From: an uncultured Thermotogae bacterium
Lineage (GTDB): Bacteria > Thermotogota > Thermotogae > MWEM01
DNA: 64,000 nt
Assembly (NCBI GenBank): GCA_963667315.1
Contig: OY763325.1
Coordinates: 1,989,380-2,053,379 of the forward strand
Direction of reading: 5' to 3'
Part shown: positions 15,181 through 37,474 of the stretch, piece by piece
Numbering within the stretch: position 1 is the first letter of the stretch
Layout: the number at the start of each line of letters is the position of its first letter
The notes under the pieces: model-generated
What the model was told of the DNA's origin: nothing
What the model saw: the letters and a program-made list of their open reading frames with translations, nothing else
Database searches by the model: none
Program-made: the position numbers and the translations under genes

Positions 15181-15505
15181 TATATCGTTGCTTCTTCATA
15201 TTTCATTCTTTTTTCAACAGATTACCTATCATTTCAGAAAACAACAGAAAGATTTTTCATAAAATCAGTCTCGCTACAAGAGTTTGTATAATAGAATGTC
15301 AATTCGAAATGCAACAAAAAACCCTAATGTTTTACAACACCTTTCACGCAAATATTTGTGAAAAAACATCCACCTCAATCAAATATAACTGAAATCTTCG
15401 AAAGAAAAAACAAATATACTTCGCTATACTAATCAACCCCATTAAATATGATAAAATAGATACTAGCAGGACTAACAAGACTAGTCCGTAAGGAGGGGTG
15501 AAACT

Positions 15506-18965: not shown

Positions 18966-18990
18966 TCGTTAATTTATACCTTCAAATATA

Positions 18991-19017
18991 AGGGCGGAAA
19001 ATCTTTCGCCCTTTTTT
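18991..19017 (+). terminator. Rho-independent terminator of the amidohydrolase operon
   Basis: GGGCG-gaaaatcttt-CGCCC followed by TTTTTT. Confidence 0.7.
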
Positions 19018-19207
19018 AAATGGCCCTAAATTAAGATTCACTAAAAACTAAATACTTCCCACTTGGGTAAACTGATCCCTTTAAACTCCCTTAATTTCAG
19101 CTGCATTCCCCTCATTTCATCCAATCAATACGTTAAAAGCCGCACCCTATAGATACACAACATTATTATTCAAAATTATTTCAATTTATTTTTACATAGC
19201 AAAAAGA

Positions 19208-19236
19208 TTGAATATTCAAACTTAAAATGGTACAAT
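19208..19236 (+). promoter_or_regulatory. Sigma-70-type promoter (TTGAAT-17-TACAAT) for the truncated lipoprotein paralogue
   Basis: -35 at 19208-19213, a 17-nt spacer, and -10 at 19231-19236. Its architecture and sequence resemble the promoter of the 2178-aa gene. Confidence 0.5.
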
Positions 19237-19359
19237 TTAACATAAAAAGATGATAAGAATTCTAAACGAATAAGCGGAAGGGGGAAAGTTAACAGGAAGA
19301 AAGAAAAGATCAAAAGTGAGAAAACAAATAGAAGACAAACTCTGGAGGTTAAAGTGAAG

Positions 19360-19774
19360 ATGAAAAAAAACTGCCGTGATAGCGTTTATGGTGTTACTGT
19401 TTGTATTGACAGCCTGTGTGAAGGAACAGAACATGGTATCGGAAGGCGAGCTGAACAATTTACTTCTTTCTGAATTGAGCGGACATTACACCAGTGAGGA
19501 TTTCACAGATTATGGTCTGTGGTTTTTGACGATAGAGACAGAAGCCTTTTTGGGGAAAATGACAAATTCTGAACAATATGACCTTGAAACGACGGACGGA
19601 ATCTTTGAAATCCGGAAGAATCCGGTGAACGGAAAACAATTAATGTTTTTTTTACCCGAAACCTTCAAGATGACGACAATCTCAACAGTGAAGATTATGG
19701 AACCTTATAGGAGAACGAACGATAATGACATCTTCATCGAAACTGTTTACATCACGAAAGAGGGTAAAGACTAA
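19360..19774 (+). pseudogene. Truncated paralogue of the N-terminal domain of the 1292-aa lipoprotein, out of frame at an A8 tract in the signal-peptide region (or expressed by slippage)
   Basis: ATG 19360 (RBS GGAGG) reads MKKN..., then an A8 run at 19363-19370. With one A fewer the product is MKKTAVIAFMVLLFVLTAC.... This matches MKKTVIVVFVVFSLLFTAC of the big paralogue. The mature region LSELSGHYTSEDFTDYGLWFLTIE...DIFIETVYITKEGKD aligns with residues about 40-150 of the 1292-aa protein and stops there. Confidence 0.6.
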
Positions 19775-20208
19775 CTGAGATGAAGATGGCGGAGGAGCGA
19801 TTAAGACCACTACCCACTCCTTGTGCTGAATGATTGTGTCTTTATATCAAATAAAGTGAATGCTGCCGGTAATATGGCCGATTTTAAAGGACATGGTGGT
19901 GCTTCATTTTTTTGTAAATCTTTATAGAGAAGAATTGGTAATCACAGGGATGGGTTTGAAGTGAACTCGAAACGGATATAAAATAGGAATTGCTAAATTC
20001 TGAAATAATTTGGAACGAATCATAAAACTGTTTGGACTAACGTAAATAAAAAAAACTCCCAAAATCACTTCTGAAAAGCGAAAAGGAATTTTTTCCAATT
20101 ACGAAGCATTTTTTCATAATACCGTACACTTAATACAATGTAATAGTTATTTTTTTAGTTTCGTTTCAAAATAGTAATGATATTGTTTGTTATAACATGT
20201 CAATAAAA

Positions 20209-20237
20209 TTGAATATTTGTTTCTGAGATGGTAAAAT
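20209..20237 (+). promoter_or_regulatory. Sigma-70-type promoter (TTGAAT-17-TAAAAT) for the 2178-aa lipoprotein gene
   Basis: -35 at 20209-20214, a 17-nt spacer, and -10 at 20232-20237. The TTG start at 20284 follows a GGAG RBS. Confidence 0.5.
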
Positions 20238-20283
20238 GAATGGTTGCAGTATAGAATCTTAAACAAAAAAGGAGCAGACGAAA

Positions 20284-23200
20284 TTGAAAAAGAACAGCAG
20301 AATCATCGTAGCGATCATGATAGTAGTGACAATGATATTAGTCCTGACATCATGCGTAAGCCAAAAGAAGCCAAACCAGGCACCGAGCGCGGTGGTAAAC
20401 ATCTACCCTTCACAGAGCGAACTGGTGGATGAGAACTACTTCTACAGCAAATGGACGGCAAGCACGGATCCGGAAGGTGGAGCAGTGACCTATCGCATCA
20501 ACTACGCGCAGACGATAGAAGGACTGGACGACCCGACCTTCTATGAGACGGTGGAGACATACTTTCTGCTGCCGAACCTGGAAGAGGGGATCTGGTACTG
20601 GCGGGTCACGGCGATGGACAAGAACGGAAACAGCACCAGGAGTCCGATCTGGACCTTCACGGTGAACGGAGAGACCTTGCCCCAGCCGGTAGACCCGGAA
20701 GAGATTCCGACAGACCCGTCACTGATCGTGAGTGGAGTGGAAAACACATCCTTCACACTGGACTGGCCTGAATACGAAGACCGGCAGAACCCGGGAAAAG
20801 CGGTAGAATACATCATCTACGTATACGACCAGGGACAGGGAATGAGCACAAGAAACGTTGAAGAAATGGGCTACTGGATGTCACGAATCGCCCCTGCGAC
20901 GACGGCACACACGACGGACACCACCTACACCTTCAACAACATGAACAGCGAGACCTTATACGACTGGGTGATCGTGGCACAGAACAACGCTTCACAAACA
21001 AGCGTGGTAGGAAGCTCACAGGTGAGAACGGGAAACAGAGCGCCAAGCCAACCCGAACTCCTGAACCCGACAGAAGGGGCAACCGACGTAGCCACAGACG
21101 TAACCCTGAGGTGGAGTGAAAGCGTTGACCCGGATGGAGACGCTGTGAAATACTACGTGTACATCGACATGGTAAAAAACACCAACCGAAACGTAACGGT
21201 CGAAGGGATAGACGAGACAGAATACCAGCCGGAAGGACTGGAAGAAGGGCGAACGTATTACTGGTTCATCATGGCAAAAGACGCCAACGGAGCGGCGACA
21301 CGAACACAGACGAACACCTTCATGACCAAAGCGGAAGGAATGGACGTGCCCAACAGCCCGACACCTGGGGACGGAACAGAAGGGATGGACGCGACTGCTC
21401 CACCGCTGTTAGAATGGGAACACGACAAAAACGGGGCACCAATCACCTACACCGTCTACATGAGTGCAAACCCGAAAAAAATAGACAAAAAAGCCGAAGG
21501 GCTGACAGCCAAAAACTACCAGATACCAGGCCTGTTGGAAGGGAATACCAGATACTACTGGGCAATCGAAGCAAAAGACACAGGAACGGACAAAACCACA
21601 CGCAGCGGGGTATGGACCTTCAAAACGGGAACCATCGAAGCGCCGGAACAGACGGAAGCCATCACAAACAGTGACGGGACACAAATAGAACTGACCTATG
21701 ACAAAGCGATGGGAGACCCTGAGGGGAAAAAAGACACCTACACCGTCAAAAAAGAAAGCAGCAACACCATCACAAGCAGAGGCGCAAGAACAGTGACAAC
21801 ATACCGCACAATCGCAACGAGCAAAATAGAAAGAAAAGCTGGAACGACAAACATCTACATTCTTACACTGGAAGAAGCAATAAAAAACGGAGACAAAGTA
21901 TTCATAGACTACACACCGGGAACCGTAGCGAGCACAGACGGCGGGAAACTGGCAAAATACGAAAACAACCCCGTCACCAACCGCGTACCGGGAGCCCTGC
22001 CGGTGTGTACCGCAGCAACCATGACAGCAGACGGCAGAAACGTAGAGCTGTCGTTCAGCCAGGAAATGAAAGCACCGACAGCCGAAGAGGCGAACCAGTT
22101 CGGAATTCTGGTGAACGGATACGTAAACGAAATAGAAGGAGCGACACTAAGTGCAGACAAAAGAGTGATCACGCTGGAACTGGAAAAACCGGTGGGAAAG
22201 AACAACGAAGTGCACGTATCGTACACAAAGGGAACCGTAGCATCAACGGGAGGAACCCTCTTAGAAAGCTTCCAGAACAAAAAAGTGAACACGGACACCC
22301 TTGAGTACATCTGGGTCAACAAAAGCGTGAACTGGAACTACAAGAGCATAAGAGCAGCGATAGACGGAGCAATAGATGGAGATATCATCATCGTGGCACC
22401 GGGAACCTACATAGAAAGCTTTGGTTTTGACGGAAAAGCGATTACCCTGAAGAGTACCTACGAAACCGACACAATGGCAACCGCCACAACGATCATAGAT
22501 GCGCAGCAGCAGGGTCCGATCATGATCTTCAGAAGCGGTGAAGACAGAAATACCGTCTTTGAAGGCTTCACCGTCATGAACGGACATGAAGAGACTTATG
22601 AGACCACAGACAGAAGAGTATCACCATACGGCGGAGCCATCACAATCACAGGGGCAAGCCCGACGATCCGAAACAACATATTCAAAGCCAACAGTTCATA
22701 TAACGGCGGAGCCATCAACGTGAGTGCGGGGAATCCGCTGATCTATAACAACACATTTGATTCAAACGAAGCTGTTTACGGTGGAGCCATCTTCCTGAAA
22801 GCGGAGAACTATTACACAGAAGGCAGAAACACAGCGGAAAAAGAAACGGCAACGATCTATGGGAATACAATCAAAAACAACACGGCGGATAAAGGAGCCG
22901 GAATCTACATAGACGATGAAAGTTACAAAGTGTACAACGCAGCAGGAACAACATGGAAAACCTTCAATGCCCCGAATGCGGCAATCACATTTGTAGAAAA
23001 CGCAACGGAGAAGAATAACACCTACAGCGGAAATACAAGACAAGAGAGAAGTGAATCAAGAACGGAGACATTGGAAGGAATAGACATCTACTACTACTGC
23101 GAAGAAGAACTTGAAACACCGGCGGGAACACTGACACTGAGACCGCAGACGGCTTACGAACAGAGTGTTGTGAGCCTGAATCTGGACTACACGATCGGAA

Positions 23201-26200
23201 GCGAATATCATAATGGATTTGTCGAATTCATATTGACGGACACAAACGGAGACTGCTTTGAGATCACGGAAGGCGCTTCCGTCATCATCAATGGACAGAC
23301 AACTCCGATCACAGATTCCGATTATTACTACACTGCAAAAAATGCCATTATTACGGGACTCAAACTGGAAGAAGGAACTGTCACATTGAGATTGACACCA
23401 CAGGAAACGCCGGCGGGAACGACAACGAATCTCATAAACGCAAGAGATATCAACTATGAGATAAGTGCCAAAGGGGACGCAGATGGACTGGATCATGTAT
23501 GGACAGACAGTACAACATCCACACAAAACTTCCTGTCAAATGCCCTGTCGATCGTGACGGATATAGCCTACAAAGAGGGAAACGAACTGTATGTCAAACT
23601 GGAAAGCACCCCAAAGAGCCTGATAGTGGCCAGTGAGACAACGGTAAACGTTGTGCTCTCATCCATAAAGGCGACGGATGACTCGAGCCAGACGTATGAG
23701 ATCATCACGGCCGCCGGAACACAGACGGGAACGGACGAACTGACGGAAGCAGCAACGCTGATCGTGACGGCGGAACACGGCAACAAGGCAGCTTATGCCA
23801 TAACGATCAACCCGACGAGATTTGTGAGACTGGAAACGAATACAAATACAAGTGGGAGCAGACTCATCAGCAGAACCAATCCACAGGTAACGCTCACGAG
23901 CTGGCATGGCAGAATCACAGACGCAGTGGACCAGGCAGGAGAGACAAACCAGTCAACGATCACGGTATGGCCGGGAACTTACATGGAAAATGTTGACCTC
24001 GGTTCAAAGGGAATCCATCTGATGAGCACGGAACCGGCGAGCAAGACCGTGAGAGAGACGACGATCATCGATGCGAATTACGAAGGAAGTGGCGTAAGCG
24101 TCTACCAGAACACGGGAGCGGTGATCATCGAAGGCTTCACGATCACCCATGCGGGATATGCACACCCGACAAGCAGCAGAGGAGATTCACCGGCAGGAAT
24201 ATCCGTGAACAGGGGAAGCGCTATCATCCGAAACAACATCCTCACAGCGAATGGAAATGAAACCGAAAACAGTGGAGCCCCCGGAATCAGTGTGGTGTTG
24301 TCGGAAACGACGATCAACAACAACACAATCACGAACAACTACAACGTGGACGAAGGAGCGGGAATACATCTGGTGATCGGAACGAGTACCGTCTACGCCA
24401 ACAGCTTCACGGGAAACAAGAGTGAGGGAAACGGTGGGGCAATAGTCATTGGAGAGGAAACAAGATATAGTATGGCGAGAGACGCTGAAAACGACACCAA
24501 AGTAACCGTTTACGGCAACAGCTTCACGAACAACGTGGGAGACAAAGGTGGTGCGATAGCGGTATACGAAGACGCAACGCCTTACAACAAGGCAGGGGAA
24601 GCGTGGAGAGCGTTCAACATGCCGGGAGCGACGACGACGTTTGTAGAACATAACGCCGATACAGAAGACAACAACACGTACTCTGGCAACAGTCTGAACG
24701 AAGACTTCAGCAGTTCAAGAGACGGCGTGGAAGAATCAACGGACATCTGGTTTGCCGGAGAAATAAAATCGACAGCGGGAACACTGGACCTGTCACCGGC
24801 AACGGTGACGGGAGATGCGGGAGAGCAGATCACGCTGACGGCGACGTACACGCTGGATTTCCCGGCATGTAACGGAGCGGTTGGCTTCGCGGTTCCGGAG
24901 CCGTTTAAGCTGACGCAAGACGCCTCAATTACAGTAGGGGGTAAAACGGTAGAGACAGACAGAGTGTTTTTCCTCGATGCTAAAACGGTCGCAATAGTGG
25001 GCATCAACTGTACGGATACACAGACAGTTGCGCTGGCCTTCAACTACACACCGGCCACACAGATGGACGAAGACGATTATGTCGTAGGTACCCGTATAAA
25101 TGTAGACGGAACGGGAACGAGATACACGGAGTCGGACTTTACCTATGCCACAATGACGATACCGCCACAGTATGCGGCTCCCGAAGTGGCGGTAAAAACA
25201 CCGGTTGGTATTGAACTGGAAGCGACAACGACGGTGACGTTCACGTGGGAAGCGACGGCAGGGACACAGACAAATGCTATCGCAAGAGAAGAAGCGGGAA
25301 TAGCCGGATACGTGGTGGCGTTTGCGGACAGAGACGGGAACTGGGCGAGTGCGACGGTGAACGACGGCAACACGAAGAGCTACGCAACGGATACCCTTGT
25401 CTATGGACAGGATTACAGCTGGCATGTGAAGGCGATCGGTGCCAACGGCAAGACGGCGACAACGACACCGGATGCGACGTTTATTACGGCCTACAGGTTG
25501 AGAGATCTGGGGAGTGAAGGGGTTGCCTACACGCTTGAAGACGATACGAACTTTGACTGTTACGAGATAGCCTTCGACAGTAAAGATCTGCCGGGAAGAT
25601 TTGACGGGATGACGGAATTTCAGATAAACGTCAAGGGACAGACGTACAAGTTTGGGCAGAATGAATCTAACCCGACACAGTATAACGTTCAGATTCCTCA
25701 TAGCGTCGGAACGCCAGATGATCCAACGATGGATGAGGTCAGAGACGGGTTCTTTGGGGAGTCTAAAATCAAAAATGTTTCCTTCGCTCAGGGGGAAACA
25801 ACCGCAGAATACGATACGATAGCTGAAGCGGTAGCAGCCGTTGATGACGCTGAAGGACAGGCAACAATCACCCTGAAGGAACCAGAGTATATTTTTACTG
25901 AAAGAATAAACCTTTACAGTGCAGCACCCATTACGATCATGGCGGCAGAGGGTGTAACACCGGTAATAAACGGAAACGACACGACACAGCTCTTCTACAA
26001 TTTCACTCAGGATTCTGCGACAGTGACGTTTATAGGCATCACCTTCAGCCACGCAAAAAGTGGGGTTGCAGGAGCGGCAGTTATATCCAATGCGTCGATG
26101 AAGTTCGTTGACTGTACTTTCAGCAACAATTTGGCAAGTAATCATGCCGGAGCGCTTTATCTGAATTGGGGCTCCTTTGTCATCAAGAACTGTCAATTCA

Positions 26201-26820
26201 ACGATAATTCATGTGGAAGCTCCTCTTGGGGTGGTGCTTTGAACTGTGCCGATAATGCAATATCTCTAAGCATAATTGAATCCACATTTACAGCAAATAA
26301 TGCCTATCGAGGTGGCGCGTTGTATATAGGAAATGCGGATACGGTAGAAATAAAGGATTCTTATTTTGATTCGAATACAGTTACCGGAAATGGAGGCGCT
26401 TTATATCTTGAACAGAGTGAAAATACAGATGTTACCATATCCGGAACGACCTTCACTTCAAATACGGCAACGAATACGAATAACGATGGTCCAACAATAA
26501 CAGTCGGATATGGCGGAGCACTCTATTTAAACTTAAATACTGCCATAGAGATCACCAGTGCGACCATCATAGATAATGCCGCGGGTAAATCAGGTGGTGG
26601 AATTTATATTCTGAGACAAGACGGTTTTACGGGAGCGCCGAAAACGAGTGGCAATTCATGGTGGTACAATAGTGTGGGTGTTCCCTCATCGTTATATTCT
26701 CAGGATAGTGATTTTTCAATAGACAAGAATGGTCAACGTATTTATCCTTGTAGGGAATCAGATCCCGTGGTTGTGAAGTTAAACACAGCACCATCGTATC
26801 GATCGTATTGCATTAATTAA
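20284..26820 (+). CDS. Giant surface lipoprotein (2178 aa): lipobox signal peptide, three to four FN3-like modules, three right-handed parallel β-helix blocks, C-terminal module with Pmp-like GGA[IL]/FxxN repeats
   Basis: The signal peptide is MKKNSRIIVAIMIVVTMILVLTSC. Repeated modules of about 100 aa contain W(T/S)ASTDPEGGAVTY-type motifs. β-helix repeats include GGAITITGASPTIRNNIF..NGGAINV. The C-terminal block has FTSN/FDSN/FTAN alternating with GGALYL/GGAIYI. Extensive paralogy to the 1292-aa gene, for example ITINPTRFVRLETNT...TITVWPGTYMENVDLGSKGIHLMSTEPASKTVRETTIID. Confidence 0.85.
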   Translation: MKKNSRIIVAIMIVVTMILVLTSCVSQKKPNQAPSAVVNIYPSQSELVDENYFYSKWTASTDPEGGAVTYRINYAQTIEGLDDPTFYETVETYFLLPNLEEGIWYWRVTAMDKNGNSTRSPIWTFTVNGETLPQPVDPEEIPTDPSLIVSGVENTSFTLDWPEYEDRQNPGKAVEYIIYVYDQGQGMSTRNVEEMGYWMSRIAPATTAHTTDTTYTFNNMNSETLYDWVIVAQNNASQTSVVGSSQVRTGNRAPSQPELLNPTEGATDVATDVTLRWSESVDPDGDAVKYYVYIDMVKNTNRNVTVEGIDETEYQPEGLEEGRTYYWFIMAKDANGAATRTQTNTFMTKAEGMDVPNSPTPGDGTEGMDATAPPLLEWEHDKNGAPITYTVYMSANPKKIDKKAEGLTAKNYQIPGLLEGNTRYYWAIEAKDTGTDKTTRSGVWTFKTGTIEAPEQTEAITNSDGTQIELTYDKAMGDPEGKKDTYTVKKESSNTITSRGARTVTTYRTIATSKIERKAGTTNIYILTLEEAIKNGDKVFIDYTPGTVASTDGGKLAKYENNPVTNRVPGALPVCTAATMTADGRNVELSFSQEMKAPTAEEANQFGILVNGYVNEIEGATLSADKRVITLELEKPVGKNNEVHVSYTKGTVASTGGTLLESFQNKKVNTDTLEYIWVNKSVNWNYKSIRAAIDGAIDGDIIIVAPGTYIESFGFDGKAITLKSTYETDTMATATTIIDAQQQGPIMIFRSGEDRNTVFEGFTVMNGHEETYETTDRRVSPYGGAITITGASPTIRNNIFKANSSYNGGAINVSAGNPLIYNNTFDSNEAVYGGAIFLKAENYYTEGRNTAEKETATIYGNTIKNNTADKGAGIYIDDESYKVYNAAGTTWKTFNAPNAAITFVENATEKNNTYSGNTRQERSESRTETLEGIDIYYYCEEELETPAGTLTLRPQTAYEQSVVSLNLDYTIGSEYHNGFVEFILTDTNGDCFEITEGASVIINGQTTPITDSDYYYTAKNAIITGLKLEEGTVTLRLTPQETPAGTTTNLINARDINYEISAKGDADGLDHVWTDSTTSTQNFLSNALSIVTDIAYKEGNELYVKLESTPKSLIVASETTVNVVLSSIKATDDSSQTYEIITAAGTQTGTDELTEAATLIVTAEHGNKAAYAITINPTRFVRLETNTNTSGSRLISRTNPQVTLTSWHGRITDAVDQAGETNQSTITVWPGTYMENVDLGSKGIHLMSTEPASKTVRETTIIDANYEGSGVSVYQNTGAVIIEGFTITHAGYAHPTSSRGDSPAGISVNRGSAIIRNNILTANGNETENSGAPGISVVLSETTINNNTITNNYNVDEGAGIHLVIGTSTVYANSFTGNKSEGNGGAIVIGEETRYSMARDAENDTKVTVYGNSFTNNVGDKGGAIAVYEDATPYNKAGEAWRAFNMPGATTTFVEHNADTEDNNTYSGNSLNEDFSSSRDGVEESTDIWFAGEIKSTAGTLDLSPATVTGDAGEQITLTATYTLDFPACNGAVGFAVPEPFKLTQDASITVGGKTVETDRVFFLDAKTVAIVGINCTDTQTVALAFNYTPATQMDEDDYVVGTRINVDGTGTRYTESDFTYATMTIPPQYAAPEVAVKTPVGIELEATTTVTFTWEATAGTQTNAIAREEAGIAGYVVAFADRDGNWASATVNDGNTKSYATDTLVYGQDYSWHVKAIGANGKTATTTPDATFITAYRLRDLGSEGVAYTLEDDTNFDCYEIAFDSKDLPGRFDGMTEFQINVKGQTYKFGQNESNPTQYNVQIPHSVGTPDDPTMDEVRDGFFGESKIKNVSFAQGETTAEYDTIAEAVAAVDDAEGQATITLKEPEYIFTERINLYSAAPITIMAAEGVTPVINGNDTTQLFYNFTQDSATVTFIGITFSHAKSGVAGAAVISNASMKFVDCTFSNNLASNHAGALYLNWGSFVIKNCQFNDNSCGSSSWGGALNCADNAISLSIIESTFTANNAYRGGALYIGNADTVEIKDSYFDSNTVTGNGGALYLEQSENTDVTISGTTFTSNTATNTNNDGPTITVGYGGALYLNLNTAIEITSATIIDNAAGKSGGGIYILRQDGFTGAPKTSGNSWWYNSVGVPSSLYSQDSDFSIDKNGQRIYPCRESDPVVVKLNTAPSYRSYCIN

Positions 26821-26875
26821 TCAGGAATAGAGTTGTAGAACGGGAACCAACGTTTTAAATAAAATAAATTTTCAA

Positions 26876-26912
26876 GAGGAAGAGCAGGCGAAATCCTGCT
26901 CTTTTGTCTTTG
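26876..26912 (+). terminator. Rho-independent terminator after the 2178-aa gene
   Basis: AGAGCAGG-cgaaat-CCTGCTCT followed by TTTGTCTTT. Confidence 0.65.
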
Positions 26913-26959
26913 GATAAGGATTAAAAGACAACTGAGCATATTGTAGATAAGAATGGAAA

Positions 26960-27180
26960 GGTGACGCACACACAGATGAATGTATTCAGGAGGCTCCGTG
27001 GTGATCTGTGTGTGGTAGAAAATCCAACATCGGCGGATGGAGGCAAAGAAATAGGGCTGGTTCATCCACCCCTTATGAGCTGGGAAACGGACAAAAACAG
27101 TGGGGCGATTAGCCTGGGACAAAACAATTCCGAACGGGCAGGAATACAAATGGCATGTACAGGCAATTGGCGGAAATAGA
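26960..27180 (+). pseudogene. Decayed, frameshifted fragment of an FN3-like module related to those in the giant lipoprotein
   Basis: One frame gives ...HPPLMSWETDKNSGAISL..., compare PPLLEWEHDKNGAPITY in the big gene. A +1 frame gives EYKWHVQAIGGNR*, compare DYSWHVKAIGANG. DNA-level similarity to 21405-21440 is visible. There is no plausible start or RBS. Confidence 0.5.
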
Positions 27181-27185
27181 TAAGC

Positions 27186-27224
27186 AAAAAGGCGGTCTTT
27201 TTCAAGACCGCCTTTTGTGTTTTT
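27186..27224 (+). terminator. Rho-independent terminator directly after the decayed fragment
   Basis: GGCGGTC-tttttcaa-GACCGCC followed by TTTTGTGTTTTT. Confidence 0.7.
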
Positions 27225-27504
27225 AGGGAAACTATTTGATTCGTATCATATAGAAATACATCGATATTTCAGTGATAAGTTGCAGAAAAACATAATATAA
27301 ATACGCCTTGTCGTAAGGCACTTCACAACCTATACAAAGTAGAAGTTAAGAAATAATTTTTCTTACTGTGAATTATTCTTGCAGATAACTCAAAAAAACG
27401 GATACAATTGTATTTTTGATAATCGTAATATTGCTGTGTGATCTAAACACTGTGTTTTTATTTTATAAAATCAACTTTATTGTTTTTTTTATATGACACT
27501 ACTG

Positions 27505-27533
27505 TTGATAATTCAACATAGAAGTGCTATAAT
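27505..27533 (+). promoter_or_regulatory. Sigma-70-type promoter (TTGATA-17-TATAAT) for the 1292-aa lipoprotein gene
   Basis: -35 at 27505-27510, a 17-nt spacer, and -10 at 27528-27533. A purine-rich 5'UTR of about 115 nt resembles the UTR of the truncated paralogue. Confidence 0.6.
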
Positions 27534-27654
27534 CAATTCTGAATAACATAGTTAGAAAACAAAGGGAACAAACTGAAAAAGACAGTAAGTTCGAAGGAGA
27601 AAAAATAATAAACAAAGATAAACGATAATGATAAGGAAACATTGGAGGGTAAAG

Positions 27655-30600
27655 ATGAAGAAAACGGTAATAGTTGTATTTGTAGTATTCTCGCTTCTGT
27701 TCACGGCATGTGTACAGGAACAGAAAGTGACAGCCGAGACCAGCCTGCCAAAAGTGCTGGAACTGAGCGGACTAAGCGGACAATATGAGGTAGAAGATTA
27801 CACGGATTATGGACTGTGGCTTCTGACGATAGAGGCGAATGCACTGACGAACAAGGTGGCTGATGCTGATACTTACTACCTTGAGACGGAAGGAAATGTG
27901 TATGCAATTCAGAGGAATCCGTTGAACGCAGGACAACTGATGATCTTTTTACCGGAACACTTCGTCATTGAAAACCTTTCAAGTGCAAAAATAACGATGG
28001 AACAGATAGGACAGTCAGGGAGTAGAGGGGACAACGACGATATCTTCATCGAAACCGTCTACATTACGAAAGACGGGAAAGAGTATGAGCTGACACTGGA
28101 GAATTACCTCTTTATGAAACAAGCGTCAAAAGACACGTTTGTGTACGCAGACGGAAAACTGCTGCGCCCAGATTATGTAAAGAGCAGTGACGGGTACACG
28201 TACAGCATGCAGAGCTACTACAACGCCCGACAGGTATCGGAAGATCACGATGTGAACGGCGCGTTTTCCTTCCTGAAAAAGCTTGAGAATTACGAGAGCT
28301 ATGTCTACGTAAACAATCCATATCGTGCGAAGATAGAAGAAGGAACAGTTGCCGTCTACGATCCGGACACAAGAGACAGGGTCTGGGAGCTGGGGGCTAT
28401 GGGTGCCATAGATGAAGCGGCGACATACACCTACGACATCGCAGATAACAGTAATGCGCAGACACTGACGCTGACGATCAAAGAAGAGAATTTGCCGACA
28501 AAATATAATCAAAGTGGAGAATATGAAATACAGTTCAAGGATGATGCGACCGTATGCAGTTTTGTCAACAGAAGCGGGAACTTGTATGATTGTGTGATTG
28601 AATATGCCATAACCGATAACGTTGATCTGATAAAAAATGCAAGATTCAGTGAGGCCAGTAACGCAACGCAGACGGATATCAGGCTGAAAGGGGTAAATAA
28701 AGCCTATGCTCTGTTAATCACAGACCCTGCAACCGTGTTGAAAGTGGCAAGCGGCACTACCGTTGCACAGATGAAGAGTTATCTTGAAGCGGTGGATGGA
28801 TCAAATCAGACCTATACCTTCAAGACGACGGATGGAAAACTGTCGAATGCCTCAATTCTGACAAAAAACGGAACACTGACAGTAACCTCTGAATATGGGG
28901 AACCATACATTGCTCAATTTGAGATGCGGGTGAATCCGACGCCGTTTGTGAGACTGGAAACGACATCAAAAATCATCTGGCACAACACGATAGGCGATGC
29001 CGTAACAGGCGCATCCGAATCAGATTATTCAACGATCACCGTTTGGCCTGGCTTGTACCGTGAAAACATCACTTTTGGTTCAAAGGCCATTCATCTCATG
29101 AGCACGGATCCGGCGAGTGAGACGGTAAGAAATACGACGATCATAGATGGAATGTCAAACGGTAACACCATTCTAATCGGGAATCTCGCCGGTGGCAGTA
29201 TGGAACGAGACGGTTCTGAAGAACAGACGATCGTTGAAGGCTTTACCCTTACGGGTGGCGCATCAGTCTTATCGCCGACATCACAAAGGGCGGATGACTC
29301 CGTTCTGGGAATGATTTCGGCAGCAGTGGCAGTAAACAGAGAAAAAGCCATCATCCGAAACAACCTCATCACCGGAAACGGAACGGATACCGGAGATGGG
29401 ATGAGCAACCTGTCAGGTTGCGGTATCATCAGTGAGTATGCCACCTCAACCGTATACAGCAACGAGATTCGAAACAATTACAATGTGTTGATAGCAAGTG
29501 GTGCGGCGGTTGCAAACGGAACGGCTGAAATATACGATAATCTCATCACACAGAACACCGGAAATATGGGCGGTGGAATTCTGGTCACCAATCTGGAAGA
29601 AACGGGCGTTTCGTCGAGAGAAACTACTGATGAAACGGTGGCAAAAATCTACCGGAACACCATCAGTGAAAATACCGCAGGAGTTAGTGAATATATCCCA
29701 GGAGACGGAGCGGGAATATATATATATAAAGGCTGCAGCATTCTGAATGCAAATGGGGAAAAATGGAGGCATTTTAATTCACCGGCGGCAAGCATTGAAT
29801 TCGTCGAAGGTTCACCGGCAGAACAGAGAAACGTCTATCAGTCAAATGCCATAAACACGGGATCCGATCAGGGGACCGATATCATGTACGACGAATCCGA
29901 AGAAACTCCTCCGGGAACCCTTGAAATCTCACCAGTAACAGTTCCGGAAGGCGATCTCTTCACCTTAACGGCAACGTACACCTTTGCAGGACCGACCTGG
30001 GAAGGTGGCGTTGAATTGGATTCAGCGGGCGATGTGACACTGGCATTCTTTGATCTGGATACCGCCTCTGTGACCATAGGAGATGGGGAGAAGAGACTTC
30101 TGACGGCTGATGAGAAATTCTCTGCTTATACTATTCAGATCGAAGGGATCACGAGTGAAGCGGCAACGAAAGTGGTGTTTCAGATTTGCAGGAAGTCAGA
30201 TACAGCTATGCCTGCAAAAGCATATACGCTAAGAGCCATACCGGATGCCGATGGTGGATCGGGGAGTGCTTATGGCAACACACAAACGGGAATAGCCTCC
30301 TCGGAGCTAACAATAAAAGTTTCTGGACCGGTTTCTTTTGCACAGGGTGAGACGACAGCAGAGTATGATACGATACAAGCAGCAGTAGCAGCCATCAGCG
30401 GAACAAGTCCGGCCACCCTCACGCTGAACAACGATTTGTACCGGGAAGGATCACAGATAGAGCTGTCATTCTGTCCTGCATTGGTAACGATACAGGCAGC
30501 AGAAGGTAAGTCACCGGTTATAGACGGTGAGGAACAATACCGTCCGTTTAGCTTGACGAACTCTCCAACCGTTACGTTTAAGGGAATTACCTTTACAAAG

Positions 30601-31506
30601 GGATATTATGAACTTACAGATGGAGAAGATGGTGGTGGAGCAATCAAGGCATTTAATACACCGCTTGTTTTGAATGATTGTGTGTTCACATCAAATAAGG
30701 TGAGAGCTGCTGGTGGTGAGGACGATTATGAAGTCTATGGACATGGGGGTGCCATTTATTCAACATACGCTACCCTTATCTTGAATGATTGTACCTTTAC
30801 GTCAAATGTGCTGCACAATGCTAGTTATTGGACTCCTGTTTATGGGGCTGCTATTTCCGTTCAAACGATGGATTTTTTAAATATTTCCAGCTGTGAATTT
30901 GATTCAAATCATATGATCATTGATGATCTGAATAACACAAGCGGATGTGGTGGCGCTGTCAATGCGGATTATACAGATTTAACGGTAATTGAGTCCTCAA
31001 CTTTCACCGGCAACAGCGCAAGTGGTGATTTTGCCGGTGCCGTCAGAATTTATGGTGAGACCTCCGGAGGGGATTCGGTTAAAATCCGCAACAGTTCATT
31101 CACTTCAAACAGTTCCATTGGTCCCTGGAGCGGTGGTGGTGCTTTGGCACTTATGAATATGTCTGGAGCAAGCGAGATTTCCGATTGTGTTTTTGACTCC
31201 AACGAAACGAATAAAAATGGTGGTGCCATCTATATACACACTAAAAATGATTTTGAAATCACAGACACCGTTATAAAAAACAACAGTGCAAATCAAAATG
31301 GCGGGGGAATCTATTTGTATTATACAAACGGGAGTGATATAACAACCGGAGGCGTCAAATGGGGGCTTGGTGCAACTTCATTGAATAACGCTTTCTCAGT
31401 CTCTTCAAATGGTACTTATCATGCAACGGCCAATTCGGATGATTCGGTTTATATCACCGGGAACACGGCGGAGAGCGGTAATTCATACACTGGAGTAACC
31501 AATTAA
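27655..31506 (+). CDS. Giant surface lipoprotein (about 1283 aa), paralogue of the 2178-aa protein: lipobox signal peptide, unique N-terminal domain, β-helix blocks, C-terminal Pmp-like repeat module
   Basis: The start was moved to MKKTVIVVFVVFSLLFTAC, with a GGAGGGTAAAG RBS. Shared modules with the 2178-aa protein include VNPTPFVRLETT..., VSFAQGETTAEYDTIQAAVAA and FTSN...GGAIY repeats. Confidence 0.85.
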   Translation: MKKTVIVVFVVFSLLFTACVQEQKVTAETSLPKVLELSGLSGQYEVEDYTDYGLWLLTIEANALTNKVADADTYYLETEGNVYAIQRNPLNAGQLMIFLPEHFVIENLSSAKITMEQIGQSGSRGDNDDIFIETVYITKDGKEYELTLENYLFMKQASKDTFVYADGKLLRPDYVKSSDGYTYSMQSYYNARQVSEDHDVNGAFSFLKKLENYESYVYVNNPYRAKIEEGTVAVYDPDTRDRVWELGAMGAIDEAATYTYDIADNSNAQTLTLTIKEENLPTKYNQSGEYEIQFKDDATVCSFVNRSGNLYDCVIEYAITDNVDLIKNARFSEASNATQTDIRLKGVNKAYALLITDPATVLKVASGTTVAQMKSYLEAVDGSNQTYTFKTTDGKLSNASILTKNGTLTVTSEYGEPYIAQFEMRVNPTPFVRLETTSKIIWHNTIGDAVTGASESDYSTITVWPGLYRENITFGSKAIHLMSTDPASETVRNTTIIDGMSNGNTILIGNLAGGSMERDGSEEQTIVEGFTLTGGASVLSPTSQRADDSVLGMISAAVAVNREKAIIRNNLITGNGTDTGDGMSNLSGCGIISEYATSTVYSNEIRNNYNVLIASGAAVANGTAEIYDNLITQNTGNMGGGILVTNLEETGVSSRETTDETVAKIYRNTISENTAGVSEYIPGDGAGIYIYKGCSILNANGEKWRHFNSPAASIEFVEGSPAEQRNVYQSNAINTGSDQGTDIMYDESEETPPGTLEISPVTVPEGDLFTLTATYTFAGPTWEGGVELDSAGDVTLAFFDLDTASVTIGDGEKRLLTADEKFSAYTIQIEGITSEAATKVVFQICRKSDTAMPAKAYTLRAIPDADGGSGSAYGNTQTGIASSELTIKVSGPVSFAQGETTAEYDTIQAAVAAISGTSPATLTLNNDLYREGSQIELSFCPALVTIQAAEGKSPVIDGEEQYRPFSLTNSPTVTFKGITFTKGYYELTDGEDGGGAIKAFNTPLVLNDCVFTSNKVRAAGGEDDYEVYGHGGAIYSTYATLILNDCTFTSNVLHNASYWTPVYGAAISVQTMDFLNISSCEFDSNHMIIDDLNNTSGCGGAVNADYTDLTVIESSTFTGNSASGDFAGAVRIYGETSGGDSVKIRNSSFTSNSSIGPWSGGGALALMNMSGASEISDCVFDSNETNKNGGAIYIHTKNDFEITDTVIKNNSANQNGGGIYLYYTNGSDITTGGVKWGLGATSLNNAFSVSSNGTYHATANSDDSVYITGNTAESGNSYTGVTN

Positions 31507-31805
31507 CCCGGAAGAAATGAAACTGTTTTTAAAATGAGAAAAAAGAACTTTTTATATCAACAGCTATCAAGAAAGTGTTTTCTGAGTTCGTTGTTGTTTT
31601 AATCTATTATTGGGGGTATTTATTTGGTTTTTCAGCAGCCATAACTTATAAACCGTTAATAAGAAACAATGATTATAACTTATAGTCCATATTCGGGATG
31701 TTAATATTAAAATTTACTTATAAAGGAATCAAAAAACAGCAGTGAAATAACACCCTGCTGTTTTTCATTTATTCAAATATTAATCATTCAGTCACAAAAT
31801 GCGCT

Positions 31806-32015
31806 TCAATTCTTCTCTGCATTTCTCAGACAATCAAATGGATTATCGACGCCGATCAAACCGACACCATCCTCATAGAATCCATCAACTACATATCCGG
31901 AAGATGCTTCCGCCAAAAGCCTGCCAAGTGAACCGCTCGCGTAATCACCTGTATAGAATTCTCCTGGGCTGTTATCAAGGTCTGGCAGTAAGTTCTTAAA
32001 GGCATCTGAAAACAT
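31806..32015 (-). CDS. Hypothetical small protein (69 aa), doubtful
   Basis: ORF only, with no convincing RBS. It lies directly downstream of the CoxM-like gene. Confidence 0.2.
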   Translation of the reverse strand: MFSDAFKNLLPDLDNSPGEFYTGDYASGSLGRLLAEASSGYVVDGFYEDGVGLIGVDNPFDCLRNAEKN

Positions 32016-32024
32016 TGCTCAAGC

Positions 32025-32831
32025 CTATTTCAGCTTTAAAAGACTCCTTTTGACAAACACCTTCAGAAGTTCTTTCCTGTATTCACCGGAAAGATCAAAT
32101 CCGTCAGAAACACTCGCCTTTTCAGATATGTTCGCCAGCATTTCAGCTTTATTTTTTAATTCCTCAACGCTTTTCCCCTTCAACGCTTCTTCGAGTATAT
32201 TGAACCGTACGGCAAGTCCCGGACGTGCCCCATAGGCTGCTCCGGCTTCTTTTACAACACCCTCTGCAATTTCTGCGCAAAGGTAAAAATTCAGCTGCGA
32301 GACATCATAATCCGTCTTCGTCATATGCTGAAAAACGCCAAAATTGAACCGGGTATCGAAGAGAATTGACAGGATGATGGGTTTGGATTTCCCATGCAGA
32401 TAGTCTTCGAGGGAAACGATTCTTTCTTCACCGTCGTATACTCTCAAAGATGCCTTCAGAGCCAGGAAAAGCGTCACAACATCCGACCAGCCGTATTTCT
32501 GTGCAATAGAACCGGAGATGGTGGACATATTTCTGATCTGATTGGTTCCGACTTTTTTCAAAACCTGCGTAATCGAATGACCGTCCATATCATCGATGAG
32601 CTCGTTGATCTTCATCCCGCCACCGATTTCAAATTGACTATCCGTTTCAATCACGGAATCGGGAAGTACATGCTGTATATCGATGAGGATTTCTGTTCGC
32701 TCATCTTCTCTCAAGGCGGTTGAAACACCCCCGGAGGTAAAAAGTGCCTTTTCCCTGTTGTTCATGTAAAGGTCCCATGCCTGTTCAAGGCTTTGTGCTC
32801 TGACATACGCTTTAAGATTCTGAAGCATCAA
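32025..32831 (-). CDS. FAD-binding subunit of molybdopterin-dependent dehydrogenase family (CoxM/XdhB-like; FAD_binding_5 + CO_deh_flav_C)
   Basis: 268 aa. It has the N-terminal ...FTSGGVSTAL...IDIQHV... pattern of CO-dehydrogenase flavoprotein subunits. No large Mo or small Fe-S subunit genes are adjacent. Confidence 0.6.
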   Translation of the reverse strand: MMLQNLKAYVRAQSLEQAWDLYMNNREKALFTSGGVSTALREDERTEILIDIQHVLPDSVIETDSQFEIGGGMKINELIDDMDGHSITQVLKKVGTNQIRNMSTISGSIAQKYGWSDVVTLFLALKASLRVYDGEERIVSLEDYLHGKSKPIILSILFDTRFNFGVFQHMTKTDYDVSQLNFYLCAEIAEGVVKEAGAAYGARPGLAVRFNILEEALKGKSVEELKNKAEMLANISEKASVSDGFDLSGEYRKELLKVFVKRSLLKLK

Positions 32832-36166: not shown

Positions 36167-37474
36167 CTATTCAACCCGTAAATCTTCTGAATATTCTAAT
36201 ATTTCATTTTCCAGAACGACTTTGATATTGACCCTGTAGATGCCCGTCTGCTGGAATACCAGCTCTTTCCATTCCGTTGAATCAAAGATCTTTCGCTTTG
36301 AAAAAGCCGGAAGGATAACATTAACAGTTCCTTCCTGATATTCGGTATACCGGTAAAGGACGGCACCATTCAATTCGATTTCGAAGATAAATCCCTTTAT
36401 CCTGTCATAAAGATCCTCACCGGAATCATTCGCAAGATTGATCTCCGCGGTATAAGCCTGACCAACCCTGACACTCTTAAGGGTATACGGTAGAATTCTT
36501 ATCATACCCGGAACGGCGGCTGTGTTGATCGAGTGTACAGAAACATTGTATTTTTTTTCATTCAATTCGTTATTCATAAAATAAGAGATGTCCAGGGTAT
36601 AGATTCCCGTTTCGGACGGAAACGCCAAATCTCCAAGGATGATATCCAGCTTTTCCCCCGGTTTCAGGAGGATATCCCTAATAACAGCGGGATTCTTAAA
36701 GATCTCCGATTTGAGAATCCCCTCGTCTTTAAGGGAAACGCGATAGGTTCCAAGGTTAAACTCCTTCAAATCAGGGGAATGATTCGTAACACTGAGATAA
36801 ACAGGCATCGTCTGACCCGGAAGGGCAAAATCATTAAAGAGTCTGACCGTCATATCCACATTTTCATTGATGATGAGTGTCTTTTTCAATTGAACATAGT
36901 GCTCATCAACGTAAAAATCCGAATGGATGGTATACGTCCCCGGATCAATATTTAACTCTGGATTTTCCCTCAGAAAATCGTAAACATCCCTCGATTCATA
37001 TTCAGCCATATCAATCGTCAGATTTGCTGGATAACTGAAGGCGTAAACCTGCTCCCCTTTTTCCGATACAATCGAAAATCTGAAATCCTTAAAAACAAAA
37101 TCATGCACAGAGGCCGTTATATTCGAGACTTTAATTTTGATAATATTTTCTTCCCCGTAATCCAGTTCATCCGCTGCAAGAATCTTAAAGACAAGGGGAT
37201 CCAGTCGACTGATATAATCGGAAGAAATCACATCCGTTCGATTGCCAAACAAAAGCCAAATAAGGGCAAAGAGGGCAATAAAAATCGCACCAAAACCCGT
37301 GAAAATAAGTCCCCGCTTTCTTTCACGACTTTTGGTGTAATTGAGTTTTTTATTCTTCTCTTTCAATTCCTCCAGCATCTTCTCTGGGGATCTTGAATGA
37401 TAATTAATATTTTTAGATACTATCTTTTCATCGGTTTTTTTTTTACGTTTTTTTCTATCAGGCATTAATCGCAA
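36167..37474 (-). CDS. Hypothetical single-pass membrane protein with Lys/Arg-rich cytoplasmic N-terminus and β-rich extracytoplasmic region
   Basis: 435 aa. The N-terminus is MRLMPDRKKRKKKTDEK..., followed by a TM (LIFTGFGAIFIALFALIWLLFG). It overlaps the pilB stop by 17 nt. No recognisable domain. Confidence 0.6.
   Translation of the reverse strand: MRLMPDRKKRKKKTDEKIVSKNINYHSRSPEKMLEELKEKNKKLNYTKSRERKRGLIFTGFGAIFIALFALIWLLFGNRTDVISSDYISRLDPLVFKILAADELDYGEENIIKIKVSNITASVHDFVFKDFRFSIVSEKGEQVYAFSYPANLTIDMAEYESRDVYDFLRENPELNIDPGTYTIHSDFYVDEHYVQLKKTLIINENVDMTVRLFNDFALPGQTMPVYLSVTNHSPDLKEFNLGTYRVSLKDEGILKSEIFKNPAVIRDILLKPGEKLDIILGDLAFPSETGIYTLDISYFMNNELNEKKYNVSVHSINTAAVPGMIRILPYTLKSVRVGQAYTAEINLANDSGEDLYDRIKGFIFEIELNGAVLYRYTEYQEGTVNVILPAFSKRKIFDSTEWKELVFQQTGIYRVNIKVVLENEILEYSEDLRVE

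Follow-up and report, generated by a model that had tools for sequence, protein, structure and literature searches.

The segment from 19208 to 19912 of the window (the whole 64-kb stretch of DNA analysed in this work; features lie on its plus strand unless stated otherwise) probably represents the decayed remains of a once complete surface lipoprotein gene, of the same small family as an intact gene for a 1283-aa protein located 8 kb downstream. Compared with this paralogue, the locus appears to have lost about 2.5 kb of internal sequence and the entire 3' end, and the tract of eight adenines (A8) at the beginning of its reading frame would be one among several lesions that inactivate it. We regard an ordinary pseudogene, rather than a genetic switch, as the most likely interpretation. 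A preliminary description of the same DNA had treated the locus as a separately promoted, truncated lipoprotein paralogue and had listed four explanations for the A8 frameshift, namely phase variation, programmed slippage, a pseudogenising mutation and a sequencing error. The pseudogenising mutation is now favoured by a relic of the paralogue found behind the open frame, whereas phase variation and recoding gained no specific support.

Reading frames at the A8 tract

The gene start consists, in order, of GGAGG (19344-19348), ttaaa, GTG (19354), aag, ATG (19360-19362), the A8 tract (19363-19370) and CTGCCGTGATAGCG. The two start codons in the segment 19344-19362, recognised from the sequence and by alignment, are in frame with each other and stand 5 nt (GTG) and 11 nt (ATG) from the ribosome-binding site. 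In a four-way alignment of upstream regions, which includes two metagenomic homologues, the spacer between the Shine-Dalgarno sequence and the ATG of the small copy has five extra bases (TTAAA), and its tract has exactly one A more than those of the three homologues; direct reading of the sequence likewise gives one A beyond what the frame needs. No long A run occurs at the start of any homologue examined, where the codons are ATG AAG AAA ACG, ATG AAG AAG ACG, ATG AAA AAG ACA or ATG AAA AAG GTG.

The frame read from the ATG (19360-19473) runs through 37 codons of unrelated sequence to a TGA, and the corresponding entry in the list of open reading frames (19354-19473) measures 39 aa from the GTG and 37 aa from the ATG. 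It is the +1 frame (19364-19774) that encodes a signal peptide with the lipobox LTAC and an N-terminal domain, homologous to residues 2-143 of the 1283-aa protein, before ending in a TAA at 19772-19774. The codons at the upstream end of this long frame are TGA-AAA-AAA-ACT-GCC, and therefore it has no start earlier than GTG 19376 (listed as a 132-aa frame, 19376-19774) and lacks the Lys-Lys n-region. As sequenced, the VIAFMVLLFVLTAC frame does not have the make-up of a lipoprotein precursor, with no start codon before GTG 19376 and no Lys/Arg n-region, and it acquires a lipoprotein signal only in a hypothetical A7 or A10 register. Removal of one A gives the textbook signal MKKTAVIAFMVLLFVLTAC, and the complete A7 reading, MKKTAVIAFMVLLFVLTAC...KEGKD, is a lipoprotein precursor of 137 aa that matches 19364-19771 at 100%, shares 48% identity with residues 1-143 of the 1283-aa lipoprotein (E 5e-42), contains a confidently folded N-terminal domain (AlphaFold pLDDT 84) and ends at the deletion junction described below. 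On these points the preliminary description holds: the A8 frameshift falls within the signal peptide and leads to a stop after 37 codons, seven adenines restore the lipoprotein signal, and the long frame has no usable start or charged n-region.

The public annotation records at this place a 113-aa protein, P0001, which begins at an internal ATG (19433-19774). Its product would have no signal peptide and would be cytoplasmic, and the call is probably a mis-annotation of the remnant.

Promoter and leader

A promoter-like site, TTGAAT-17-TACAAT with an extended -10 TG, was found by scanning at 19208-19236 and could be aligned with its counterparts upstream of the large paralogue and of two metagenomic homologues (L022 and L025). 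Among these promoters the TG does not vary, nor do the -10 positions TA-AAT, and the -35 is largely conserved; by this alignment the site appears to have been inherited from the parent gene. It is followed by a purine-rich leader of about 110-125 nt (19237-19343), without a match in Rfam, whose layout is similar in alignments with the paralogues. A long purine-rich leader of this size between promoter and ribosome-binding site is common to genes of the family (19237-19343 and 27544-27642 in the window, 1975-2083 in L022), with no Rfam match and no obvious structure. The preliminary description had predicted both the homology of leader and ribosome-binding site to those of the large lipoprotein gene and the presence of an own promoter at 19208-19236, and our upstream alignments and scan agree with it. 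Upstream of the promoter, and 3' of an amidohydrolase gene, the scan found a terminator-like hairpin followed by a T-run (18990-19023; 10-bp stem with five GC pairs, then TTTT), which would isolate the remnant transcriptionally from the upstream genes.

A relic of the paralogue behind the stop codon

The intact paralogue (27655-31506), assigned by sequence and domain search, is a lipoprotein that combines the N-terminal domain with Chlam_PMP-type repeats. It had been given a length of 1292 aa; the paralogue string quoted for it, TGGAGGGTAAAGATGAAGAAAACG, is present at 27643-27666, but the actual start is the ATG at 27655, which gives 1283 aa.

This protein was searched with tblastn against all frames of 19300-20300. 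Besides the match of residues 2-143 to 19364-19771, two further segments were recovered beyond the TAA. The first, EDGGGAIK (19782-19805), is identical in eight of eight positions to residues 991-998 of the paralogue and lies in a frame shifted by one relative to the N-terminal ORF. The second, a relic of the repeat region reading LVLNDCVFISNKVNAAG..GHGGA (19815-19912), is again in the first frame and corresponds to residues 1004-1035 (LVLNDCVFTSNKV...GHGGAIY), which align to 19820-19909 with 65.6% identity over 32 aa (E 3e-9). The two segments joined into one peptide show 69% identity to residues 991-1033 of the paralogue (P0002; E 2.6e-16). An independent search for DNA repeats gave ungapped matches on both sides of the TAA, 19709-19773 to 28021-28085 (77% identical) and 19815-19896 to 30659-30740 (74% identical). 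Homology to the large paralogue ends at about 19912, so that about 45 residues' worth of decayed repeat sequence is left, distributed over two frames and containing stop codons.

Local DNA alignments place a putative deletion junction at 19766-19781, where the N-terminal domain, ending in 'ITK-GK-YELT', meets the position that corresponds to 'FTKGYYELT' (about residue 983) of the paralogue, the exact breakpoint being uncertain. The TAA at 19772-19774 sits at this junction, and the ends of the deletion carry short similar motifs in the intact paralogue, YITKDGKEYELT (residues 136-147) and FTKGYYELT (residues 980-988). Residues 144-990 and 1036-1283 of the paralogue are absent from the locus, which thus covers its relative only in part. 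The frame is also disrupted repeatedly, by the A8 frameshift at codon 4, by the TAA at the junction and by at least two further frame switches with in-frame stops in the relic behind it.

Since a match to residues 991-1035 continues out of frame beyond the TAA, the supposed small gene is a remnant of a full-length paralogue. The paralogy proposed earlier is therefore sound (48% identity, E 5e-42), but the view of a truncated gene in its own right had overlooked this relic and does not stand. It also follows that the A8 frameshift hits something already broken, which makes a switch or programmed recoding much less attractive. The lesions are unevenly spread: at least two or three frame-breaking changes lie in the approximately 130 nt of relic, against one in the 411-nt N-terminal part. 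This imbalance weakly suggests that the N-terminal ORF was maintained for some time after the deletion (P about 0.05-0.15 in a simple binomial calculation with small numbers).

Proposed order and mechanism of the lesions

From these features we infer the order and mechanism of the lesions. The parent would have been a full-length surface lipoprotein gene beginning with ATG AAA AAA ACT (Met-Lys-Lys-Thr, as in the homologues). An internal deletion of about 2.5 kb, with ends at the short similar motifs TK-G-x-YELT, may have removed codons ~144-985, leaving the promoter, leader, ribosome-binding site, signal peptide and N-terminal domain (137 codons) of the parent; about 130 bp of the C-terminal repeat region would have remained, with its frame switches and stops, and the rest of the gene would have been lost. 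A synonymous change from AAG to AAA would have created an A7 run, which replication slippage may then have lengthened by one A. Translation initiated at GTG 19354 or ATG 19360 is predicted to stop after 37-39 codons, and no lipoprotein would be made.

The lipoprotein family and its N-terminal domain

Domain searches of the large proteins found Chlam_PMP repeats, fn3, SWM_repeat and BslA-like domains, and they are predicted to be beta-helix-type surface proteins. Chlamydial Pmp autotransporters combine Pmp repeats with a middle domain and a C-terminal autotransporter barrel; the 1283-aa and 2178-aa proteins, both with lipoprotein signals, match only the short Chlam_PMP repeat model, and no autotransporter domain was detected in them.

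The N-terminal domain (19376-19771 and 27670-28083 in the window) has no counterpart in Pfam or NCBIfam. When 1.84 billion proteins were searched exhaustively by HMMER, with both copies from the window as query, only 25 representatives were recovered. In every one of them the domain occupies residues ~6-145, immediately behind the lipobox of a giant surface lipoprotein; the complete-looking matches are lipoproteins of 700-1700 aa, and the other short matches look like fragments. The AlphaFold model of the domain is a small beta-rich module (pLDDT 84) in which confidence falls over the last ~20 residues, and it has no significant fold match in the PDB.

Two short matches were considered as stand-alone homologues and rejected at the DNA level, as both proved to be frameshifted full-length genes, and no stand-alone member of the family was confirmed. 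P0019 comes from a 563-bp contig (L021) in which the long gene continues in another frame past the stop. P0011 is the first half of a gene in L022 broken by a 1-bp deletion. The shift in L021 (470-563) occurs in an A-rich stretch after 'IYLRKEE', and that in L022 (2350-2380) is the loss of one base from AAA, giving AA, within 'NPLNAKQLM'; the two come from unrelated metagenome assemblies. Broken copies seem to be frequent in this lipoprotein family, or else assemblies are error-prone there.

At 48% amino acid identity, saturation of synonymous sites is to be expected, and divergence was therefore assessed with identity matrices and retention of consensus residues. The remnant domain is 47-51% identical to its nearest relatives, the intact paralogue being 48-63% identical to the same set, and it retains 21 of the 28 family-consensus residues, within the range of the other members. 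By neither measure is there relaxed evolution in the remnant domain. The lesions would thus be recent relative to the divergence of the paralogues, or the domain would have stayed under selection.

A cassette system gained no support: no recurring truncated copies lie beside the family members at the P0009 and P0008 loci, and gene conversion is implausible at only about 65% nucleotide identity between the remnant and the intact gene. The closest large homologue, P0008 (L029 7400-9018), has IS21-type genes (IstB) and a further gene coding for more than 1000 aa beside it, a setting which hints that the family occupies mobile or variable regions elsewhere too. In the 2178-aa protein of the window, residues 1749-1807 (25528-25704) show weak similarity to the N-terminal domain (YTLEDD...NP...; E 0.028, 17% identity), and this segment may be an internal diverged copy of it.

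Genomic neighbourhood

The remnant lies in a strain-specific 13-kb island (18983-32042), which also contains the intact 1283-aa paralogue and the gene for the 2178-aa lipoprotein (20284-26820). In nine metagenome contigs of about 98% identity, the match to the window stops at 18982 and resumes at 32043, and where the island sits they have only a GNAT acetyltransferase gene of ~800 bp; the terminator of this gene was seemingly kept in the window at 31728-31792 (81% over 65 nt). The related loci contain no homologue of any island protein. In the island itself no integrase and no flanking repeats defining a mobile element were found, its composition is not clearly foreign, and an Rfam scan of its whole length gave nothing relevant. 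At its right end, a 69-aa ORF on the minus strand (31806-32015) has no Pfam or NCBIfam match and is absent from the related contigs.

The neighbouring amidohydrolase is exactly shared with metagenome contigs, and close members of its cluster are labelled Thermotogota bacterium. The nearest GTDB representatives are uncultured Thermotogota/Thermotogaceae MAGs with at most 90% identity. The same relatives cease to match the window upstream of 15402, where they carry GH31, Cys/Met-metabolism and GntR genes instead; some 3.6 kb left of the island there is thus probably another variable boundary or rearrangement.

Is the additional adenine real, and does it switch?

On the evidence above, we consider it likely that a real +1 slippage mutation occurred in the A7 run of an internally deleted and truncated surface-lipoprotein gene remnant, and that nothing functional is made from it. 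It must be taken into account, however, that apart from the extra A the 137-codon frame, the lipobox, the ribosome-binding site and the promoter are all intact and that the domain shows no relaxed evolution, a pattern equally expected from an error or from a still-used truncated gene with a reversible switch. Moreover, the locus is represented by a single sequence, which leaves room for an A7/A8 mixture or an assembly error. Searches covering 5.8 billion protein clusters, the representative genomes of GTDB and metagenome contigs from JGI yielded no second copy: the protein search recovered only the 113-aa call of the source genome, a look-up of the exact product returned no record, a scan of the GTDB representatives with the domain alignment gave no match, and the contig scan brought three distant family members and no copy of the locus. 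The clusters of the 113-aa call and of the 1283-aa paralogue have one member each.

An error of assembly or base calling, under which the genome would truly have A7 and encode an intact 137-aa truncated lipoprotein, still derived by deletion from a larger gene, is unlikely but has to be taken seriously. Homopolymers are the commonest site of indel errors, and the otherwise perfectly open frame, the textbook signal peptide and the unrelaxed domain all fit such an error. However, over 8.77 kb compared with a 98%-identical contig (L001) the window shows 222 substitutions and one indel, which is intergenic, in an A-run at 15407; the number of coding indels is zero. All eight of the other A8, T8 or T10 runs inside long ORFs are in frame; further A8 runs in coding sequence are located at 965, 2101, 42262 and 55508. 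From the single indel in 8.77 kb and these in-frame runs, the assembly is not generally error-prone at homopolymers, and in a locus that already carries other lesions a real frameshift is unsurprising. The A8 is thus probably real.

The T10 run (37435-37444) belongs to a gene on the minus strand (36167-37474) for a protein of 432/435 aa; on the coding strand it is an A10, preceded by an A7, which encodes Lys-Lys-Lys in frame at codons ~8-13 (RKKRKKKT). This tract is longer than the A8 and potentially more slippage-prone, yet its gene is intact.

Slipped-strand phase variation would have A7 and A8 turning a stand-alone N-terminal-domain lipoprotein ON and OFF in the population, the consensus being the OFF state. 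The layout of the locus is that of a typical contingency locus: the tract covers codons 2-4, that is, a 5' coding position, of a gene from a surface-protein family, with its own predicted promoter and an otherwise intact ORF, in an island that varies between strains; in addition, the relic seems to be more decayed than the N-terminal ORF in front of it. Nevertheless, we judge this quite improbable. Eight adenines are few for a hypermutable poly-A tract, and in the 64-kb window the A8 is statistically unremarkable, there being 12 A8/T8 runs and one T10 in all, and most runs of at least eight in coding sequence are in frame within ordinary genes. No homologue examined has the tract, no stand-alone member of the family was confirmed (the two short matches checked at the DNA level being frameshifted full-length genes), and no second copy of the locus was found that could show length polymorphism. 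The ON product would be a fragment cut at the deletion junction, in which AlphaFold confidence falls over the last ~20 residues, and a full-text literature search returned no report of phase variation in Thermotogae. That A7/A8 is a working switch of a stand-alone, lipid-anchored N-terminal domain, a small gene newly formed out of a deleted gene for a surface protein, is very unlikely; if true, it would be, as far as the literature search shows, the first contingency locus reported in Thermotogota. We infer instead, in keeping with a pseudogene, that the extra A is fixed rather than switching.

On an A run tRNA-Lys can re-pair in any register. Programmed recoding, in which a +1 ribosomal frameshift or slippage of RNA polymerase on the A8 would restore the frame in some messages and give low levels of lipoprotein, could also draw on the slipperiness of A runs for RNA polymerase and on the apparently productive A8 of some bacterial IS elements (PMC1088944), but it is hardly credible for a remnant: a +1 shift is needed, the -1 frame stopping after six codons (MKKKLP*); the tract is conserved in no homologue examined; RNA folding of 19340-19460 gave z = 0.18 against shuffled sequences, that is, no stimulatory structure around the tract beyond chance; inspection of the sequence found no stop or rare codon after the A8 run, and a prfB-like stop codon or internal Shine-Dalgarno context is lacking; and selection against slippage is evident from runs of at least nine A or T in a large proportion of genomes (PMC1088944).

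Significance of the locus

The finding matters mainly for annotation, since the public 113-aa call P0001 masks what a frameshift and an internal deletion have left of a large gene for a surface lipoprotein. The 5' fragment of a gene can pass for a promoted small gene with an intact ribosome-binding site, and a homopolymer frameshift in a surface-protein gene need not be a switch. The frameshift itself is ordinary, and the locus adds one more example to the known gene remnants. Its surroundings have modest interest for cell-surface diversification in uncultured Thermotogota, given the 13-kb island of giant lipoproteins and a rare N-terminal domain family with several frameshifted members.

Comparison with known systems

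Recoding by transcriptional slippage on A/T runs has been described for Thermus dnaX (A9), Shigella mxiE (T9) and IS elements (PMC1088944). As in those cases, an A run here divides two overlapping frames whose fusion is a homologous protein. However, the run is shorter than the usual length of at least nine, is unconserved in the homologues, and has no evident second functional product.

The poly-G contingency loci of the chlamydial pmp genes (PMC3323650) are similar in having a mononucleotide run at the 5' end, a polymorphic surface-protein family with Chlam_PMP-type repeats and a frameshift in the tract. They also share the ambiguity between slippage and sequencing artefact, an uncertainty that the C. 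psittaci genome paper states for the pmp poly-G tracts (PMC3323650). In contrast, the tract studied here is an A8 and not a long G/C run, is unique within its family, has no documented length variation and belongs to a truncated remnant. The family itself consists of lipoproteins without a detected autotransporter domain, so its members are not Pmp proteins. The locus resembles a contingency locus only in the position of the tract and in the gene family.

In the GeneTack survey, isolated frameshifts validated by homology were ascribed to sequencing errors or to indel mutations in pseudogenes (PMC3711429). The locus departs from a typical pseudogene in that its promoter, ribosome-binding site and whole N-terminal frame are intact bar one base; from this near-intact N-terminal part, decay would be recent and a residual role formally possible. 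With bacterial pseudogenes and gene remnants it shares partial homology to an intact paralogue, a homopolymer frameshift, a premature stop, an out-of-frame relic and occurrence in one strain only.
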